Positions 11,971-61,730 of a stretch of DNA of 64,000 nt are shown in pieces (within the stretch, counting starts at the first letter, position 1; each line of letters opens with the position of its first letter). A program made the position numbers and the translations under genes. Where the stretch lies: NCBI GenBank assembly GCA_046350315.1, contig JAXMAP010000002.1, positions 1,824,390 through 1,888,389 of the forward strand, given 5' to 3'. Source of the stretch: Phycisphaerae bacterium (lineage in GTDB: Bacteria > Planctomycetota > Phycisphaerae > UBA1845 > Fen-1342). The notes below the pieces were generated by a model. That model ran no database searches. It was given only the letters and a program-made list of their open reading frames with translations, and was not told where the DNA came from.

Positions 11971-12043
11971 GCCACCGTAGCTCAATTGGCAGAGCAGCGG
12001 TTTTGTAAACCGCAGGTTTCGGGTTCGAGTCCCGACGGTGGCT
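11971..12043 (+). tRNA. tRNA-Thr (anticodon UGU), no encoded CCA.
   Basis: Cloverleaf folded by hand. Acceptor GCCACCG/CGGTGGC, D-stem GCTC/GAGC, anticodon stem GCGGT/ACCGC with loop TTTGTAA (U33, UGU, A37), T-stem TCGGG/CCCGA, T-loop TTCGAGT. Confidence 0.85.
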
Positions 12044-12129: not shown

Positions 12130-13461
12130 TCACGTCAGTCTCGCGCGCTCGCATGCCAGCAGGAACCGCGCGACCTGCAGCTCCCCCCAGTATCGCGCGC
12201 GGCCTGGCCACACGCCGGCGATGAAGCCCTGGTGCCCGCCGTCGCGCGTGATCTGAGGAATGATCCACGGCGAATCGAGCATCTCGTTCGGAATCGACTC
12301 GGCGGGAACGAACGGATCGTCGCGCGACGCGATGACGAGCGTCGGAACGCGGATTCTGGTCATCAGCGGGCCGCAACTGCATCGCGCGTAATAGTCGTCC
12401 ACTCCGGCATAGCCGAACACCTTCGCCGTCACGATGGCGTCGAACTCCTCCATCGTGCGGCAGGTTCGTAATCGCTCCACGTCGATCAGGCCCGGAAATT
12501 GCCGCGCTTTTTCGAGAGCCTGCGGGATCAACAGTTGCATGAAATACCGCGAATACCGACCGCCCAGCGCTCGCGAGATAGTCGCCGCGCATTTGGACAG
12601 ATCGAACGGCGCGGCGACTACGGCCGCGCCGGACACTCGCGCCACCGCCCTCGAATCCTGCACCGGCGCGCCGGAGACCGAAACCTGGGCCTCCGCGCCC
12701 GAAACCGGCGCCACAGCGCGGGAAACCTGCGCCGCCGCACCGCAGACGCTCGCCGCCGCGCCCGAAAGTCCGGACGCTGCGCCGCGCAAACCCAGCAACC
12801 GCGCCGCCACGCTGCCGCCCAGCGAGAAACCGACCAGATAGATCGACCGGACGCCGCCGGCGCGCAGATGCGCGATGCTTGTCTCGACGTCGTCGACGTC
12901 GCCGGCTGAATACGTCCTGTGCGTGCGGTTCATTCGGCCGCCGCAGCTTCGGAATTCCATCACCGCAACGTTCCAGCCGTGCGGCGCGAGTAGCGCGGTC
13001 AGGCCGTGAATCCACGGCGCCTGCGCGGAACTGCCCAGCCCGTGGAGCAGCAGCGCGGTCGGCCCTAACGGATCGCCGTGCAGTCGATGAAGCCACAGTT
13101 CGTCGCCGTCGGGCGTCGGAACTGCCGTCGATTCAAACGCGGCTCTTCGCACACGCCGGAAGAGGTACGTCCAGATGGTCTGGCCATGCGCGTTTCGCAG
13201 CCACCAGGCGGAGCGAAACGGGTGGCGCGACAATTCGGCGAGAATTTCGTTCTTGAAACGTCTCGCCGCGGACGCGTCGCGCGTCGCATCGGCGGGCACG
13301 CGCGCTCCGTCAGAGCCGCGACCGTAAGGGAGCGGTCGGTCCGGAGCGGCGAGCGTCGTCGGGCTCGCCGGGATGGCCTCGACGCCCAGGCCGACCGCTC
13401 CCTTACGGTCGCGGCTCTGACCAGACTCAGGCTTCGCGGATTCCGCCCTTCGCAACGGCAT
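12130..13461 (-). CDS. Alpha/beta hydrolase, YheT-like family. The true start is probably downstream of the annotated one (GTG within ...VPADATRD...).
   Basis: GDELWLHRLHG...LLLHGLGSS...HGWNVAVMEFRSCGG...YLVGFSLGGSV (nucleophile elbow GxSxG) ...ASRDDPFVP...GGHQGF. The 5' ~150 nt of the ORF is the translation of a REP-like palindrome (RPLPYGRGS), so the annotated Met is unlikely to be the real start. Confidence 0.65.
   Translation of the reverse strand: MPLRRAESAKPESGQSRDRKGAVGLGVEAIPASPTTLAAPDRPLPYGRGSDGARVPADATRDASAARRFKNEILAELSRHPFRSAWWLRNAHGQTIWTYLFRRVRRAAFESTAVPTPDGDELWLHRLHGDPLGPTALLLHGLGSSAQAPWIHGLTALLAPHGWNVAVMEFRSCGGRMNRTHRTYSAGDVDDVETSIAHLRAGGVRSIYLVGFSLGGSVAARLLGLRGAASGLSGAAASVCGAAAQVSRAVAPVSGAEAQVSVSGAPVQDSRAVARVSGAAVVAAPFDLSKCAATISRALGGRYSRYFMQLLIPQALEKARQFPGLIDVERLRTCRTMEEFDAIVTAKVFGYAGVDDYYARCSCGPLMTRIRVPTLVIASRDDPFVPAESIPNEMLDSPWIIPQITRDGGHQGFIAGVWPGRARYWGELQVARFLLACERARLT
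12640..12800. repeat. Degenerate ~27-30-bp tandem repeats (minisatellite) inside the hydrolase CDS, encoding a low-complexity Gly/Ala/Ser/Val insert.
   Basis: Recurring units cgcgccggagaccgaaacc, cgcgcccgaaaccggcgcc, cgcgcccgaaagtccggacgc. Protein insert GAASGLSGAAASVCGAAAQVSRAVAPVSGAEAQVSVSGAPVQDSRAVARVSGAAVV. Confidence 0.5.
13311..13418. repeat. REP/MITE-like palindromic element, copy A (29-bp perfect inverted repeat with ~50-nt loop).
   Basis: cagagccgcgaccgtaagggagcggtcgg ... ccgaccgctcccttacggtcgcggctctg. Shares the core gaccgtaagggagcgg/ccgctcccttacggtc with four other loci. Confidence 0.7.
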
Positions 13462-15446: not shown

Positions 15447-15544
15447 TCGTCCAATCTGCAGCGCCGCGCGCGATCGCGGGGCGGCATTCTAGTGTGCCGT
15501 CTCAGAAATTCGCATAGGCGTAGGCGTGGATGGCAGTGGCTCAC

Positions 15545-15695
15545 TTTCGCATGCGACGCCGGAAAAACGCTCGACATTGAGGCCCGACCGTAAGGGAGCG
15601 GCTTTCTGCTCGGCGCAAAAGACCCCTCCCTTACGGTCGGGGCTCGGCTGGGGCGCTCCTTCGCGAGACCGAGCCACTACCGAGTGGAGAGTGCG
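15545..15695. repeat. REP/MITE-like palindromic element, copy B.
   Basis: gcatgcgacgccggaaaaacgctcgacattgaggcccgaccgtaagggagcgg...ccctcccttacggtcgggg...gagccactaccgagtgg. ~85% identical over ~145 bp to copy E (61575-61730). Confidence 0.7.
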
Positions 15696-27414: not shown

Positions 27415-27583
27415 CCTAGACCGGATTCATTTCTCGCGTAGCGTCGGACGTCTGCGTCCGACGCCGAATTCTGCGTCGGGCACGGCGGTCCGACGCTACG
27501 GAAGACCTGAGTCTGCACTAGCCGCGCTGCCGTTCTTCCGAAAAGAGTCGGGCGCTGGCGCAGGGGCCGCGTTGAAAGCCTCG

Positions 27584-30967: not shown

Positions 30968-33034
30968 TCATTTCTTGGTCAGCGTGGTTCGCAACTCGCG
31001 CCGAAGCTGCTCCGCTTCCGGCCGGCGTTCCGGCGGGGCCTCAAGCTTCAGATCCTGCCCGAGTTTGTCTGACAAGAGCAGCGTGAGTAACGCCTCCATT
31101 ACGTTTTGCGTGCCGCCGCCGGCGCCGCCGCCGCCGGGTTGACCGCCGATCACGATCTTAGGCACCACATCGACGCCCGACTGCTGAATCGCCTCGGCGA
31201 ATCGCGCCATCACCTGCTGGGTGAGCTGGAACTGCGGCCCGCCATAGGCGCGGACCTGCTCTTCGATCGCGATCGCCTGCGCCACGCCGACGCGCGCGGC
31301 GCGCTGCGCCTCGGCTTCGCCCAGCGCGGCGACTTTCGCCGCCTCGGCTTCCGCCAGCGCGCGAATTCGGGCCGCCTCGGCCTCGGCGACCGTCCGCATC
31401 TGCTGTGCCTGCTGAACGGCGCGCTGGTATTCGGCCTTGCCCTGGTTGCTCTGCACGGTGATCGCCAGCTCACTTTCGGTAAGCTGCTGCTGCTGGCGAG
31501 CCCGCGCTTCGGCCTCGCGCAGCTCGCGCTCCTTCAGCGCGGCGGTCTCCTGCCGGCCGTAGGTTTCGACTTGCTCGAGGGCGATTTGCCGCGTGCGGAG
31601 CTGCGTCAGAATGTCCTCGATGCGCGTATCGCCGGAAGAGGAGGTCGGCGTTCCGATCAACACTTCCTCCAGCTCCAGGTTGTAGTGCGCGAATTTCTCG
31701 CGCATCTCCTCGCCCGCCAGTTTCTGGATCATGGCGCGGTCTTGCAGGAGTTGAATCAGCGTGCGCGTTTGTCCGATGTTCTTGAAATACGCCGACACCA
31801 TCGGGTCGAGCGTCTGCTCCACCAGCCGCTTCACGTCGCCAAAACGCTGCACGACCAGAGGCGCCTTGCGATAGTCGATGTGCACGACCACCGACAGCGG
31901 CAACGACGGCTCGAACGCGTCCTTGGTGATCAGCGACACTTCTCGCAGGTTCTCGTCGTACTTGTGCGCGCCGGCTTCGCTGCGAATCCACTTCAGAATG
32001 AAATTCGTGGTCGGCACCATCAGCACGCGGCCGGCGTAGGTGTTGAACGCGTACTTGCCCGGCAGCAGCGCTTCGCTCCACACGCCGCGCTGCCCGCGCT
32101 GCACTAATTCCCCGTGCTTGTATTCGACGCCCGATAGGTCCTGGCCGGTTTCGCCGGTGTACGACACGACCACGCCGACGCTGCCGACCTCGACAATCGT
32201 CTTGTCGATCATCTCGACCGTCGCGAACAGGCGGTTGAGGTAGTACGTGCCGTCGACCAGCACCTGCAATTGCCGCCCGCGGCGTCCGCCTGCCTTCAGG
32301 AACTTCTCGGGATCCTGGAAGTTGTTGTGGAACGACTTGGCGTCCGACTGATCGGCGCCGACGACCGGCGCGATGATCTCGCCGGCCGGCAATGCTGGGC
32401 CGTCGTGGATCGTCACGATGCCGATCATGTCGTCGCTGCCCTTGATGACGACGGGCGTAAAACCGTCGCGCGCGGCGATTTCGGCCTGCATTTTGGCGAA
32501 TAACGTGCGGTCGCCGGCGTCCAGGGCCATGAAGTACAGGTGGTCCTTGGTGATGACGCAAAACTGCGCCAGGTTGACCGCGTACGTGCCCTCACGCAGG
32601 ATCTGCCGCTGCGGACCGCGCTGTCCGCCGGCGCGCAGAAACTCCAGCACGTCCTCGAATTGGTGCGCCGTCTCGTTCGAAGCCAGCGTCTGCGACGGAG
32701 CCAGCGGCGCTCCATCACGCGCGAATAAGTAGCCGATCTGGCCTTGCGGAATCGTCACCAGCGGCGTGCTGTGAACGCGAAACTGAAGCGGCGTTAGAAT
32801 GTGAAGCCCGCCGCGCAGCACGTTGGGTTGATAGCCCGCCTCGCCGTTGCGCGCGATGAAGCCGCTGTCGACGGAGCCGCGCCGGCTCCAGCGCTTCTCG
32901 ACCACGCCGACACGTGTGTTCGGGATGAAACGCACACCCGAAAGCACCACGCCGATCGCCGCAACGACGATCAGGCCGACAATCCACATCAGCAGAATCG
33001 GCGTCGAAATCGTAAGAGGAATGGCCGCAAACAT
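30968..33034 (-). CDS. Flotillin / SPFH (band 7) family protein.
   Basis: N-terminal TM helix. SPFH core. Long A/E-rich coiled coil (AEAEAARIRALAEAEAAKVAALGEAEAQRAARVG) typical of bacterial flotillins (YqiK/FloA-like). Confidence 0.8.
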   Translation of the reverse strand: MFAAIPLTISTPILLMWIVGLIVVAAIGVVLSGVRFIPNTRVGVVEKRWSRRGSVDSGFIARNGEAGYQPNVLRGGLHILTPLQFRVHSTPLVTIPQGQIGYLFARDGAPLAPSQTLASNETAHQFEDVLEFLRAGGQRGPQRQILREGTYAVNLAQFCVITKDHLYFMALDAGDRTLFAKMQAEIAARDGFTPVVIKGSDDMIGIVTIHDGPALPAGEIIAPVVGADQSDAKSFHNNFQDPEKFLKAGGRRGRQLQVLVDGTYYLNRLFATVEMIDKTIVEVGSVGVVVSYTGETGQDLSGVEYKHGELVQRGQRGVWSEALLPGKYAFNTYAGRVLMVPTTNFILKWIRSEAGAHKYDENLREVSLITKDAFEPSLPLSVVVHIDYRKAPLVVQRFGDVKRLVEQTLDPMVSAYFKNIGQTRTLIQLLQDRAMIQKLAGEEMREKFAHYNLELEEVLIGTPTSSSGDTRIEDILTQLRTRQIALEQVETYGRQETAALKERELREAEARARQQQQLTESELAITVQSNQGKAEYQRAVQQAQQMRTVAEAEAARIRALAEAEAAKVAALGEAEAQRAARVGVAQAIAIEEQVRAYGGPQFQLTQQVMARFAEAIQQSGVDVVPKIVIGGQPGGGGAGGGTQNVMEALLTLLLSDKLGQDLKLEAPPERRPEAEQLRRELRTTLTKK

Positions 33035-33547
33035 GAGTCATACTCCTGCCGAAGCCGAGCCGCGGCTCGGCGTTCGGTGGTTGGGCCCGGTGCGCCAAGC
33101 ACCCGGCTCGGACCGGACGGTTTGCCTCGCTTGGCGCGAGGCGATCCGATTCGTAGTTCGTTGATCGCGAAGCCGCCGCGACCGCTGTCGCGGGCGAAAG
33201 CGCGCGTTGCTATGGCGTGTGCCGCATGGCGTGCCTCCAGCGTCGCCTACGAGGTTAGCTGACGGGCTCGCGGCGCTAGATCCGCGTCCGCCGGTCTTTC
33301 GGCGGATTCGCCCCTGCGGCGACCTCTCGTACACCGAGTGATCGGCCACGTTGGGTTCCCCGTTGCCGCAAACTTCGCGGCATTCGGCGATCTTCATACA
33401 TGAAACAACATAACACGATTCGGCGCGGGAGCAATCCGCTCGAGCGGAATGTCCCATAATAGCCGCTGGAATGATCGCAGAATGGGCCCTGTTCCAAACT
33501 CCGAACGGTTTGGTACTGCATGGTGCTGGCTGTCGAGCGCGCGAATC

Positions 33548-40195: not shown

Positions 40196-40281
40196 CGAAC
40201 CGACAAACAGGATCGCGCCGGCGTGCTGACACGCCGTATCAGGCGGCCGTGCGGCGCGATTGCCGCACGGTAATAACGCGA

Positions 40282-40354
40282 TGAGGGCGCTGGGACTCGA
40301 ACCCAGGACCCACGGCTTAAAAGGCCGTTGCTCTACCGACTGAGCTACGCCCTC
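40282..40354 (-). tRNA. tRNA-Lys (anticodon UUU).
   Basis: Reverse complement GAGGGCG-TA-GCTC-AGTCGGTA-GAGC-A-ACGGC-CTTTTAA-GCCGT-GGGTC-CTGGG-TTCGAGT-CCCAG-CGCCCTC-A folds as a canonical cloverleaf. Confidence 0.85.
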
Positions 40355-40440
40355 AACTTCTTGTTATCTGGTCATTTACTCGCCCGCGTCGGCATCACGA
40401 CAACCCTTGGAACAGCCCGTTGACAAACGCTGCTAACCGA

Positions 40441-40535
40441 GCCCCGACCGAAAGGGAGCGGACGGGGCGACGGCCGAAATCGCCTGAAATCTCAGTTCGT
40501 TCCGACAGCCGGGCGACCCCCCTTATGGTCGGGGT
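40441..40535. repeat. REP/MITE-like palindromic element, divergent copy C, immediately next to tRNA-Lys.
   Basis: ccccgaccgaaagggagcgg ... ccccccttatggtcgggg. Confidence 0.5.
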
Positions 40536-44099: not shown

Positions 44100-44738
44100 C
44101 CGCTCATTCCGTTGGCGACGTCCGTCCAAAATTCGGCGGAACGGCGGAGATTCTCCGAGATCGTAGAGTGGGCGCCGCGCGCGTCAGCAAGCTACTCGAT
44201 GGGCGCGATCCAAACAGCGCCGTCCGTAACGTAGTCGATAGTCAGCCGAGATCCTCGCAGCAGCGCGGTCCCCAAAAGCGCCGCGCCGCCGGTCTCCAGG
44301 ACAGGAATGACTTGCGGCTTGCCACCCTAAAGCGCCGTTGCCTCATACGTCGCAAATTCGACGCGACCGCGAATCACGGGTGCGATCTCGAAATGACCCG
44401 CCCGCCGAGTCGAAACGCCGTGGCGTGGCCGATGCGATGAATGTAAGGAATCACGCCGGGGCGGCGTTGCCTTAGCCGATGAACGGCGTCCAGCAAATTC
44501 GGGGCAGCTTCGTAGTCGCCACTTTCAACGTCGATTGCAACGAATTCGCCGTTCTGGCTTGGCTCAAGCAACGCGCGCAGTCGACCCGCATAGATTGACT
44601 CACCGAGCGACACCGTTTCAGACTTCGATCGAGGCAGGCCTCTCGGAGATTCTAGCAGGTTCAATCGCGGCCCGCCCGAAATGTCGTGCACGACGTGCCG
44701 TGGCGAAGGAACACGTTGAATCGTGAGTTGAAGAAAAA

Positions 44739-45170
44739 TCAAAGTTGATTCATGCAGCCCTTGATTTCCTGATTCGCCATGTGTTTCTTGTCGAACATCC
44801 GCATCTTGGAGTAGAAAGCGGCCCAAATAATTGCAGCTTCCGCGAACCCGATAGGCCCATCTGGACCAACGACGGAGAGGCAATTTGACGCACGAAACAA
44901 GCGCCTCGCGAATGACCGCCGTCCAACAGAGCACGCGGACAGGAAGAGTCTTTTCCCCGCCAAGTATGGCGCAAAGAGCCTTGCTGCTTCCGCGAAGCGA
45001 AGCTCGTCAAGCGTAAAGGCGAAGCCATCGCGGTTTCCATGGCACGCGAGGTGAAGATAGCGAAATCTCGTCTTGCGGAACTGTTGAAGCATGACGCGTA
45101 GCTCGCGCCTTGTGCGAAAATAGCGGTAGCGAACTTGCTGTCCGGCGAGCTCCAACATCGATTCAAGCAC
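44739..45170 (-). CDS. Small CHAT/caspase-like protein (143 aa) retaining a His/Cys dyad. Possibly a truncated remnant.
   Basis: YLHLACHG (His box) and RLFLSACSVG...SVVGPDGPIGFAEAAIIWAAFY match the C-terminal half of CHAT domains. Only ~38 aa precede the His box, too few for a full caspase fold. Confidence 0.35.
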   Translation of the reverse strand: MLESMLELAGQQVRYRYFRTRRELRVMLQQFRKTRFRYLHLACHGNRDGFAFTLDELRFAEAARLFAPYLAGKRLFLSACSVGRRSFARRLFRASNCLSVVGPDGPIGFAEAAIIWAAFYSKMRMFDKKHMANQEIKGCMNQL

Positions 45171-45264: not shown

Positions 45265-46419
45265 TCAATCCAGCCACTCCCCCTCCTTCATCTTCCGCGG
45301 CAGATATTGCTCCGTGATGAAGCTGAAATTCTTGTTGCTCAGGGCTTCCAGCTCCAGCTTTACGCCCAGGCTCTCCATCCGCTTGATCTCGCGCTGCCAG
45401 TCCTTGCTCGCGAACCACGGATATTCGCGGATTTCCCTGGCTCGCCGGCGGTCTTCGTCCGTCAGCGGCATCGGCACGTGCGGCGGAATGTCGAACTTCT
45501 CGGCGTCGAAGCTGCTCATGCCGATGAAACGCGCCGCCGGGATCGCCATCCGCTGGCTCTCGAACGCCAGGTTGATCGAGCCCTGCTTGACGACGCTGTA
45601 GATGTAGTAGCCCCAGGGGTCGTTATCGACCAGTACGTACACCGGCAGCTTCAGCTCGCCGTGCATGCGATGGCAGAGCCGCCGTACGCCGCGCGGCGGT
45701 TGGCCTCCGCCGTGAATGATGATGCAGGCATGCTTTTCCCAGAAGCGGTCCTTGTTGAACCGCTGCCAGACGGCGCCTTTTTCAATCAGCAGGATGAACT
45801 TGGCCTTCATCTTCGCCGGCACGAACTGGATCACGTCGGCCTCGACGATGCTGGGTACAGCCCAGCCGCCCGAGCCCATCGCCGTCAGATCGATCGTGTC
45901 GCCGTTGTCGACGATCGTCAGCGGCCCGACCATGCTGCCCTTGGTCTCGGCGTGCACGCCCAGCTCTTCGCGCAGCGCGGTGACGGTGACCTCGATGTCC
46001 TCGATGACCGGGTCGGACTCGGCTTGATCGAAAAAGATCAGCTCCTTGCTGCCGCGGACGGGGACTTTCAGGTTGTAGAACAGGTCGCGCAGGCTGGTCG
46101 AATCGTCGGCGTCGATCAGGCGCTTGCAGACCTCCGCCACGCGGAAGGTCTGCATGAACTTCTTGGCCTGGCTGCCTTCGCCCTTTCGCCGGCCCAGCAG
46201 GCTGAAGAATGAGCGGCGTTGCTTGCCGTCGAGCAATTCGATGATGCCGCGTTTCTCGTTGAACTTCACGTTGCCGAGCGTGCGCGAGGGGATTTCGACG
46301 AACGGGTCGTCCTGCTTGTGGACCATCCCGATGATGCCGGTCGCCAGCTTGCGAATCCGCTCGCCGGCGGCGGCCCGATCCCGATTCCCGCCTTTCAAGG
46401 CGGCTTTCCTTTTCGCCAC
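45265..46419 (-). CDS. DNA topoisomerase VI subunit A / Spo11-family protein, stand-alone ('Mini-A'-like). No Top6B gene adjacent.
   Basis: CAP/winged-helix catalytic Tyr motif LRDLFYNL. Toprim Glu in FILLIEKGAVWQRF and DxD in YVLVDNDPWGYYIYSV. 384 aa. Confidence 0.75.
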   Translation of the reverse strand: MAKRKAALKGGNRDRAAAGERIRKLATGIIGMVHKQDDPFVEIPSRTLGNVKFNEKRGIIELLDGKQRRSFFSLLGRRKGEGSQAKKFMQTFRVAEVCKRLIDADDSTSLRDLFYNLKVPVRGSKELIFFDQAESDPVIEDIEVTVTALREELGVHAETKGSMVGPLTIVDNGDTIDLTAMGSGGWAVPSIVEADVIQFVPAKMKAKFILLIEKGAVWQRFNKDRFWEKHACIIIHGGGQPPRGVRRLCHRMHGELKLPVYVLVDNDPWGYYIYSVVKQGSINLAFESQRMAIPAARFIGMSSFDAEKFDIPPHVPMPLTDEDRRRAREIREYPWFASKDWQREIKRMESLGVKLELEALSNKNFSFITEQYLPRKMKEGEWLD

Positions 46420-46477: not shown

Positions 46478-46640
46478 GGGTAGTGGCTCAGTTTCGCGAA
46501 GGAACTCCCCAGCCGAGCCCCGACCGTAAGGGAGGGGTTTCTTGCGACCGCAGAAGGCCGCTCCCTTACGGTCGGGCCTCGGTGTCGAGCGTTTTCCCGG
46601 CGTCGCAAGCGAAACCGAGCCACTACCAGCATCTTGGAAG
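46478..46640. repeat. REP/MITE-like palindromic element, copy D, with ~20-bp terminal inverted repeats.
   Basis: TIRs gggtagtggctcagtttcgc / gcgaaaccgagccactaccagc flank the core hairpin cccgaccgtaagggagg...ccgctcccttacggtcggg. Confidence 0.7.
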
Positions 46641-46694: not shown

Positions 46695-47600
46695 TCAGGC
46701 GTCCGTGCTTGCTCCCCCGATCGCATCGACGGGCGGTGACGAGCTATGCAGCGCATCCGCGAACGACCGCAGGTGCGTCACGCGCTCGCAAAACACCGTG
46801 AATCGCAGCTTCGCGCGGACGGTGTCGGTGAGCGCCCGTCCCCCGAGCACCAGCGCGGCGCGGTACTCCGTGGCGGCGGCGTACAGCTCATCCACCTGTG
46901 CCGCGAATCGCGCCGCGTCCGTCAGCGTCGACGCGCTGAGCCAAACCAAACGCGGTCGGTACATGTGCAGCGCGGCGATCAGCGACTCGGGCGGCAGGCC
47001 GATGCCCAGCGAGTCGGCGCGCCAGCCGGCCTCGCGCAGCGTCAACTCAGCCATCAGCGTTGGGAGCGAGTACGGATCGCCTTCGATCGCCGCGCCGATC
47101 GCGTGCGGCGAGCCGGGTTGCGGCGCCGGAAGCATTTCCCGAAAAACATGCATCAGGCGCGTGCAGATTTCCACGCCGCGCCGTTCCTGGAAAACGTCGA
47201 TCTCGCCGTGCCGCCAGCGATCGCCGACGGATTGCAGCGCGGGCGTGACGACCTGGTCGAGTATCTCGAACATCGGCTGGCGCGCCAGGTGCAGATCGAC
47301 GCAGATGCGATGCGCCCGCTCCTCATCGCCGGATTCGAGCGATTCGCGGAATTGTTCCGCCGCCCGATCGCGGACGGTCTTGCCGGTGCCGGTCGTCGAA
47401 GGAAGCCCCAGGATCTCGGGCCGAATCAGGCAATGCCCGCTGTCGCGCAGGAACTTGACGACGGCGTCGAGAGGCAGACGACGGTGTCCGCCCACGGTTC
47501 GAATGGAGGTGATAACGCCCTTATCGCACCAACGTTTGAGCGAGGCGTCACTGACGCCGATCGCGCGGGCCACTTGTCGTGGCGTGAAGTGCTCAATCAC
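46695..47600 (-). CDS. MerR-family HTH + cobalamin (B12)-binding domain transcriptional regulator (CarH/LitR-like).
   Basis: HTH VIEHFTPRQVARAIGVSDASLKRWCDKGVITSIR. C-terminal B12-binding-like Rossmann region (EGDPYSLPTLMAELTLREAGW...). Start assumed GTG at ~47600, and the upstream ORF-table extension is unsupported. Confidence 0.55.
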   Translation of the reverse strand: MIEHFTPRQVARAIGVSDASLKRWCDKGVITSIRTVGGHRRLPLDAVVKFLRDSGHCLIRPEILGLPSTTGTGKTVRDRAAEQFRESLESGDEERAHRICVDLHLARQPMFEILDQVVTPALQSVGDRWRHGEIDVFQERRGVEICTRLMHVFREMLPAPQPGSPHAIGAAIEGDPYSLPTLMAELTLREAGWRADSLGIGLPPESLIAALHMYRPRLVWLSASTLTDAARFAAQVDELYAAATEYRAALVLGGRALTDTVRAKLRFTVFCERVTHLRSFADALHSSSPPVDAIGGASTDA

Positions 47601-47844
47601 TTTGGTACTCGCGTTAAGGCCGCCGAATTCAACGCGAGAGCATTCTACAGTGAGGGCGTGCAGGCAACAGTGCCCATTTTGCGGCCGCCGTGAGCTACGG
47701 ACCTGTTTCACGAGTTCGAGCGGGCGAGGCTCCCCCCGCCCCGATCGCGTTGGGCGCATGCGAATTTCCGAGGGCACCGGCGCGCGCTGAGTGGCGGTTG
47801 TGTTCCTAACGCGACCGGGGCATGTGATGAATAGACCAGTCGCA

Positions 47845-48450
47845 CTACTCAAGCAGAGCCGAATCCACCGGCGTATCGATGTCGCGCGCCCCCTGCGGCG
47901 CTTCGACGACGGCGACGTCCGACGGAGGCGCGTCACGGATCAAGCCGCGCGCCCCGACGTCGTCCGGCAACGTCCGAAGCTGCTCGAATCGTTCACACGA
48001 AAACAACGCCGGAACGCCGAGCGTTTGCTCGTACGCGGACGCGACGATGGGCCTGCCTGTCTCGCGCCATGCCGCGACCAGCCGGTCGAGCAACTCCGCG
48101 TCCACGCCGGGCTGGTCGACGAGCATCAAGACGACCGCCGCCGGTTCGAACGGCGCGGTTTCGCTCGGTGTCGCGCGGAGCGACTCCAATCCCGCCCGCA
48201 GCGATGAACCCATGCCGCGTTGCCACGCGGAATTAATCGTCACGCTCACCGGCAAGTCCGCGATCTCGGCGCGACAGGCGTCTGCCTCGGCGCCGAGAAC
48301 GACGACGATGGGCCGGCAGCAGCTCGCCAGCGCCGCCGACGCCGCGCGCCCAAGAAGTGACTGACCCTGGAAGCGCAATAGTTGTTTGGGCCGTCCCAGA
48401 CGCGTTGAGCCGCCGGCCGCGAGCAGGATCAGGCCGGCTGAATTGGGCAT
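47845..48450 (-). CDS. MobA-like NTP transferase domain protein (molybdenum cofactor cytidylyl/guanylyl-transferase, MocA/MobA family).
   Basis: GLILLAAGGSTRLGRPKQLL N-terminal nucleotide-binding motif, ~200 aa. Confidence 0.7.
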   Translation of the reverse strand: MPNSAGLILLAAGGSTRLGRPKQLLRFQGQSLLGRAASAALASCCRPIVVVLGAEADACRAEIADLPVSVTINSAWQRGMGSSLRAGLESLRATPSETAPFEPAAVVLMLVDQPGVDAELLDRLVAAWRETGRPIVASAYEQTLGVPALFSCERFEQLRTLPDDVGARGLIRDAPPSDVAVVEAPQGARDIDTPVDSALLE

Positions 48451-61317: not shown

Positions 61318-61574
61318 CTAGCCGCGACTCGCGCGTGCGGCGACCGCGGTGTCGCGTTAGCGATCCGGGGGCCGAGACACCCGGCGACATTGCGGATCGG
61401 CGTCAAGTTCGTGGGCGGAACAATGCCATTCGCGGACATTCGCGGTCGTCTGGCAGGGCGCCGACCGCTTGACCGGCCGCTTGCGCTCGTGGTTCGGATG
61501 GATTTCGGCAGTCTCTTGCAATCGCGGATGGGGACCCCAAACTTGACGAGTACCCCATGATCTGAACTCGGGAT

Positions 61575-61730
61575 AGTGGACTAATTTCGCATGCGACGCC
61601 GGAAAAACGCTGGACACCGAGGCCCGACCGTAAGGGAGCGGCCTTCTGCTCATCGCAAGAGACCCCTCCCTTACAGTCGGGACTCGGCGGGGGAGTTCCA
61701 TCGCGATACTGAGCCACTACCGAACTCGGC
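61575..61730. repeat. REP/MITE-like palindromic element, copy E.
   Basis: gcatgcgacgccggaaaaacgctggacaccgaggcccgaccgtaagggagcgg...ccctcccttacagtcggg...gagccactaccgaactcgg. Confidence 0.7.

Follow-up and report, generated by a model that had tools for sequence, protein, structure and literature searches.

Does a gene for the A subunit of topoisomerase VI (Topo VI) that has no gene for the B subunit beside it encode a protein which works on its own, or part of an enzyme whose other subunit is encoded elsewhere? The question is raised by an open reading frame of the ORF list (45265..46419, minus strand; 384 aa, GTG start; top6A hereafter) in the 64,000-nucleotide stretch of DNA analysed here (the window). 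A previous reading, made from the sequence only, had taken its product for a stand-alone, 'Mini-A'-like member of the Top6A/Spo11 family without a B subunit, flanked by a MITE-like repeat and possibly at work in a conflict system. In archaea the top6B-top6A tandem has been described as invariable (PMC7671362). Our analysis favours an explanation in which the partner gene would lie elsewhere on the chromosome, and we weigh it below against alternatives where the evidence on them appears.

Identity of the top6A product

The reading frame was found where it had been placed and contains the motifs ascribed to it (LRDLFYNL, the Toprim glutamate and DxD), and full-length matches in Pfam, NCBIfam and PDB bear out that the protein is a bona fide member of the Top6A/Spo11 family. 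Three Pfam domains (TP6A_N, Topo_VI_alpha and TOP6A-Spo11_Toprim) all score above their gathering thresholds, the NCBIfam equivalog NF003333 is matched at 502.5 bits (cutoff 465) over profile positions 13-367 of 367, and the structure of S. shibatae Top6A (2zbk_A) matches residues 19-381 with E=3e-69. Along the protein an N-terminal segment (residues 36-85; 46165..46314, minus strand), covered by the alignment to S. shibatae Top6A that runs from residue 18/19 on, is followed by the winged-helix 5Y-CAP domain (codons 86-155; 45955..46164, minus strand; TP6A_N, 55.5 bits), by Topo_VI_alpha (residues 161-199) and by the Toprim domain (codons 208-377; 45289..45798, minus strand; TOP6A-Spo11_Toprim, 199 bits, profile positions 1-170 of 170). 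Topo VI A subunits (S. shibatae 2ZBK chain A; those of Phycisphaerae/Pirellulales, PMC11302465) have the same three-domain layout - N-terminal B-binding part plus 5Y-CAP, all-beta linker, Toprim - and the same length, catalytic R/Y, E, DxD and type of T2BI box.

LRDLFYNL corresponds to residues 110-117, and its core R111-D-L-F-Y115 is invariant in 32 aligned homologs and aligns with the RDLYY motif of 2zbk_A, so that the 5Y-CAP tyrosine (Y115; codon TAC, 46075-46077, minus strand) and the arginine preceding it (R111, as in RxxF/YY) are both present. Likewise, E213 (45781-45783, minus strand; motif LLIEKG at residues 210-215) and the metal-binding pair D265-N-D267 (D265-x-D267; 45619-45627, minus strand; motif VDNDPWGYY at residues 264-272) are invariant among homologs and provide the acidic Toprim residues for Mg2+. 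The T2BI box KLELEAL (K354-L360; 45340-45360, minus strand), situated in the Toprim region, fits the Topo VI type, which is defined as (R/K)xExxA/Sx (PMC7671362), and its S. shibatae counterpart reads KLEIEAM. On these sequence matches, the product of 45265..46419 is a Topo VI subunit A of full length and canonical type. An AlphaFold2 model computed with 32 near-identical homologs adds no support (pLDDT 56.6, and under 50 for the 158 N-terminal residues).

An identical sequence is publicly deposited as MFO0838401.1, lies on a contig of 4,849,319 bp and is titled 'MAG: DNA topoisomerase IV subunit A [Phycisphaerae bacterium]'. We caution annotators that this PGAP / NCBIfam family name ('DNA topoisomerase IV subunit A') is a misleading naming quirk.

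As to more distant kin, the protein shares a homologous fold and the catalytic motif RDxFY with eukaryotic Spo11 / SPO11-3. Spo11 is a eukaryotic protein whose partners are of the TOPOVIBL type and which makes the breaks of meiosis, whereas the closest relatives of the window protein and the curated model which it matches are prokaryotic Topo VI. Another related Toprim protein is JetD/MksG, and weak JetD matches in PADLOC (24.7 bits, E=2.6e-6; and 14.9 bits) might suggest that the protein is the Toprim nuclease, JetD/MksG-like, of an anti-plasmid system of the Wadjet (SMC) type. We rejected this identity, and hold it to be exceedingly unlikely, on the difference from the Top6A equivalog score (502 bits, full-length and including the 5Y-CAP tyrosine domain) and because no JetA, JetB, JetC/SMC-like or kleisin-like genes lie within ±15 kb of top6A; the CAP architecture, too, is unlike that of JetD, and so faint a similarity is what common Toprim ancestry would give.

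Other A-like proteins are Mini-A and the A-like part of Topo VIII. Mini-A proteins (Takahashi et al. 2019; PMC7671362) are ~300 aa long, carry an xWELDAL T2BI box, are encoded by viruses or proviruses and have no N-terminal 5Y-CAP half. The window protein resembles them in its 5Y-CAP tyrosine and Toprim E/DxD chemistry and in the lack of an adjoining B gene, but departs from them in each of the other features: it has 384 aa and a conserved N-terminal part, its KLELEAL box lacks the W and has E for D, and its gene lies among housekeeping genes, with those of relatives in varied core-genome contexts. As it is of full length, with the N-terminal 5Y-CAP part kept, a box of the Topo VI type and a housekeeping context, the Mini-A-like reading is not supported. 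Nor does the protein agree with Topo VIII, in which B-like and A-like moieties are fused or paired, plasmid-borne, equipped with an RVELNAM box and devoid of the N-terminal CAP part, whereas the window protein is chromosomal, has no GHKL moiety, reads KLELEAL and possesses the N-terminal part. The segment in question contacts Top6B in Topo VI and is missing from Mini-A as well as from Topo VIII (PMC7671362). Among 120 homologs its mean conservation (0.82 for residues 36-85) equals that of the catalytic domains (0.81 for CAP, 0.87 for Toprim), as would be expected if binding to Top6B were still required.

Gene neighbourhood in the window and in relatives

That the window holds no GHKL/Top6B gene, as had been read from the sequence, is borne out by searches of three kinds, none of which gave a match at E≤10: tblastn of the 64 kb window with S. 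shibatae Top6B (a query that we checked against 2zbk_B: 1164 bits, 2 mismatches); hmmsearch --max of all six-frame window ORFs of at least 60 aa with an 81-sequence archaeal profile, drawn from a search of metagenome contigs with S. shibatae and M. mazei whose best 80 matches were all archaeal B-A tandems; and a search of the 64 kb window with a 202-sequence Planctomycete profile. What surrounds top6A instead, between 31 and 60 kb, are genes for an SPFH protein, inositol monophosphatase, an amino-acid kinase, LpxI, a metallo-beta-lactamase-fold protein, tRNA-Lys, NuoD and a GFO/IDH/MocA oxidoreductase on one side and for a CarH-like regulator, MobA, XdhC, a hexapeptide acetyltransferase, MutY, MurD, an ECF sigma factor and a Ser/Thr kinase on the other. 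Within ±15 kb of top6A we found no genes of integrases, transposases, phages or plasmids.

The protein has more than 7,900 homologs, the best 120 of which are Phycisphaerae/Planctomycetota proteins with 76-84% identity; homologs measure 379-393 aa, compared with 384 aa here. The clade of window-type Top6A, for which we compared the loci of the window, L001-L011 and L104, is held together by identities of at least 73% (range 73-84%). In all five independent relatives studied (Top6A 78-82% identical to that of the window), top6A stands alone within ±10 kb, and its neighbours vary between tRNA synthetases, pyruvate kinase, NusA, LpxD and other unrelated housekeeping genes.

These data bear on the alternative of a true stand-alone Top6A, which after loss of B would break or bind DNA by itself or with another partner, in the manner of Mini-A and possibly within a conflict system. 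It would account for the lack of top6B in the 64 kb window, and for the fact that the top6B of this very genome is not among the 119 loci listed in our scan (see below); the REP/MITE-like repeat close by, and a truncated CHAT-like ORF in a stretch of lower GC, may also be counted in its favour. We nevertheless regard it as very improbable. The protein shows none of the features by which Mini-A is defined, its Top6B-binding N-terminus is constrained like the catalytic core, its gene context is housekeeping rather than viral with neighbours that are not conserved in relatives, PADLOC shows no defence family besides the faint, Toprim-level JetD match and, as described next, intact top6B genes exist elsewhere in the genomes of both clade members (2/2) that could be tested. 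With top6A among housekeeping genes, the proposed role in a conflict system finds no support either.

Top6B in Planctomycetota

Viral contigs, scanned with a degenerate DNA pattern built on RFANxVPLLY, a motif invariant in Top6B, yielded a single high-GC Top6B (L092/L093), which as a protein seed retrieved thousands of Planctomycete Top6Bs, many of them titled 'DNA topoisomerase VI subunit B [Phycisphaerae bacterium]'. The tandem top6B-top6A is kept in L093 and in L094-L099, with a Top6A that is only ~52% identical to that of the window, and top6B is solitary in L100, L101, L105 and L106, where no top6A lies within 10 kb. Scanning genome contigs with a codon-restricted pattern from the Planctomycete-invariant Top6B motif WVPFTSESKEAIADYDEI gave at least 119 loci (L107-L225); those listed include neither the window's own contig nor GCA_016716585.1, CP054190.1 or GCA_900696525.1. 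Top6A is adjacent at 54 of the at least 119 Top6B loci listed, and none of these 54 is of the window type (maximum identity 63%).

Direct linkage comes from two relatives. Contig JADJXS010000001.1 (4,242,598 bp) holds a top6A of the window clade (P0085, 78% identity) at 2,140,192-2,141,331 and also an intact top6B at ~504,003-506,021 (locus L120, 504,001-512,000), 1.64 Mb from top6A. In the MAG PLA2 (GCA_900696535.1), top6A (P0012, 82% identity) is on contig 16 and an intact top6B (L107) on contig 61. Both of these Top6Bs are free of internal stops and contain the GHKL N-box, G1 and G2 boxes, the RFAN motif and the switch-lysine region, and a neighbour-joining tree groups the two with P0208, P0254 and P0316 in a single clade whose members are all solitary. 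A partner Top6B is found, as for Topo VI A, in genomes of the same clade (n=2), and the claim of a stand-alone gene without a B subunit is not supported by a clade whose members have intact top6B elsewhere, seen directly in these two relatives.

P0075 and P0254 (101,438 bp) probably are a third pair of top6A and top6B on one contig. Two further candidates were rejected: L105 as a paired A/B locus (12,762 bp) was a coincidence, as it has a B and no A, and P0085 and P0208, considered as coming from one assembly, belong to different ones.

Just upstream of the solitary Phycisphaerales top6B, we observed a divergent gene for a CRS1_YhbY (RNA-binding) protein, a conserved micro-synteny around the relocated B (L100 9371-9640, L101 7333-7833, L105 3184-3510, L106 9577-9867, L107 2502-2768); in L100 and L106 this gene comes after genes for Usp and polyprenyl synthase.

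Planctomycetota have, then, two types of Top6A, tandem-linked and solitary, which are 51-53% identical to each other, with corresponding Top6Bs that are 58-65% identical. As neither type is closer than the other to the archaeal homologs, in A or in B, we rejected a separate acquisition of the window-type A from archaea. The two A types, one always in a B-A tandem and the other always solitary, could nonetheless be taken to mean that the window's gene is an extra, diverged Top6A paralog with a different role, in a genome which has a complete top6B-top6A tandem elsewhere. This, too, appears very unlikely to us. In both genomes where the two genes were located, Top6B is solitary (no A in the 6 kb downstream at L120 and none in L107) and falls within the all-solitary Top6B clade; such a B needs an A partner, for which the window-type A is the sole candidate seen. 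Moreover, the two A types were never found together in one genome, the solitary A retains the B-binding region, and the equal distance of both A types from archaeal Top6A is what one expects of orthologous lineages.

Proposed gene arrangement and function

In our judgement, the locus very probably represents canonical Topo VI with a split operon: top6A would provide the DNA-cleaving subunit, and the gene for its ATPase partner would be located elsewhere on the chromosome. Topo VI being a heterotetrameric A2B2 topoisomerase of type IIB, two A subunits would form the DNA gate, in which Y115, positioned by R111, would attack the DNA backbone, with Mg2+ held by the Toprim residues E213/D265/D267. 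The N-terminus of A would couple this A2 gate to the B2 GHKL ATP gate, which would capture a second duplex and pass it on. Such an arrangement would have arisen when the ancestral top6B-top6A tandem was split in a Phycisphaerae lineage, which would have left top6B far off on the same chromosome. Compared with archaea and with other Planctomycetota, where Topo VI comes as a B-A tandem, the A and B genes of the Phycisphaerae sub-clade are unlinked and, in one relative, 1.64 Mb apart.

Both Topo VI subunits have been described in Phycisphaerae and Pirellulales, groups without topo IV (Allen & Maxwell 2024; PMC11302465). Because Planctomycetota with Topo VI have no topo IV, the enzyme most likely serves as the decatenase of the cell. 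A top6B outside the window that forms part of a normal Topo VI, the very finding which the sequence-only reading had set against its own claim, is what we observe in relatives, and for this particular genome we strongly infer its presence from the clade pattern and from the above report (PMC11302465).

A variant of the split-operon reading may be envisaged in which A, sharply diverged from the tandem type (51-53% identity as against 58-65% for B) and conserved in its clade, is regulated independently of B and perhaps has a B-independent, Spo11-like side activity too, on top of its work as a topoisomerase. The difference between these identities leaves room for some functional divergence, and in the window genome top6A lies just downstream of a gene for a B12/light-sensing, CarH-like regulator; all the same, we consider the variant very improbable.

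Much of this is already known, given that the exact protein is deposited and annotated and that bacterial Topo VI with both subunits is documented in Phycisphaerae. What our analysis adds is modest and descriptive: a sizeable Phycisphaerales lineage has broken the otherwise near-universal top6B-top6A tandem. Its main value is one of correction, as a lone top6A in a window is no evidence for a Mini-A-like or conflict-system protein. The gene is very probably an ordinary housekeeping gene rather than a lone 'Mini-A' conflict factor, with a partner that is presumably encoded in its own genome. Where top6A and top6B are unlinked, annotation based on neighbourhood, or screens for a 'missing partner', will misjudge such genes.

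Intergenic repeat and other features of the window

Upstream of top6A lies the CarH/LitR-like regulator gene that the earlier reading had recognised (46695..47936, minus strand), with MerR/HTH_17, B12-binding_2 and B12-binding domains. Within the ORF as listed, the HTH does not begin until residue 117, and translation therefore probably starts well downstream of the first GTG. This gene and top6A are co-directional with a palindromic repeat between them, a pairing not seen in relatives. The repeat, a near-perfect palindrome of ~150 nt (46479-46628) with the termini GGTAGTGGCTCAG...CTGAGCCACTACC, is real and REP/MITE-like, yet 'flanked' overstates the case since it is present on one side of top6A only: it is a dispersed element rather than paired ends around the gene. 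Further full copies (87-91% identity) are at 15531-15683 and 61574-61723, a shorter copy at ~13293-13412 and a single arm at 40444-40461; the core 18-mer occurs 9 times in the window compared with 0 expected. For the repeat, which perhaps works as a hairpin or terminator separating this co-directional pair of genes, a hairpin of -100 kcal/mol (z=-9.2) is predicted. It matches no Rfam family at gathering score.

Downstream of top6A, a 143-aa ORF (44739-45170, minus strand) with a His/Cys dyad-like HLACHG...LSAC is present as described, and its likeness to CHAT is sub-threshold (E=0.027; 14.3 bits, cutoff 24). It belongs to a real and sizeable but uncharacterised family, with members of ~200 aa and 400 cluster representatives (239 of them at E≤1e-10), for which matches to CHAT are likewise sub-threshold only (E 0.004-0.03), and it aligns to residues ~30-170 of typical members and so seems truncated at both ends. 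The ORF lies in a stretch of lower GC (~0.60). As it is absent from the top6A loci of all relatives, we rejected it as a conserved partner of top6A, and on the question whether a CHAT-like ORF is always found downstream, none of them has it conserved beside top6A.

Further downstream, small reading frames on the minus strand (44180-44700) look by eye like a small protein of the antitoxin kind and the C-terminal end of a retropepsin-like protease; 44180-44410 is broken by two stop codons, 44374-44700 has no Pfam match, and the frames may be gene remnants. Elsewhere in the window, a c-di-AMP (ydaO/yuaA) riboswitch aptamer (33229-33399, minus strand; 68.5 bits, gathering score 38) sits upstream of the 688-aa SPFH/Band 7 ORF (30968-33034, minus strand). 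Genes for tRNA-Thr(TGT) (11971-12043, plus strand) and tRNA-Lys(TTT) (40280-40355, minus strand) are present, with no integrase or mobile element linked to either. Finally, 27416-27521 form a 106-nt perfect-register palindrome with 53-nt arms and no spacer, which is 74% complementary and whose sequence has no relation to that of the main repeat family.
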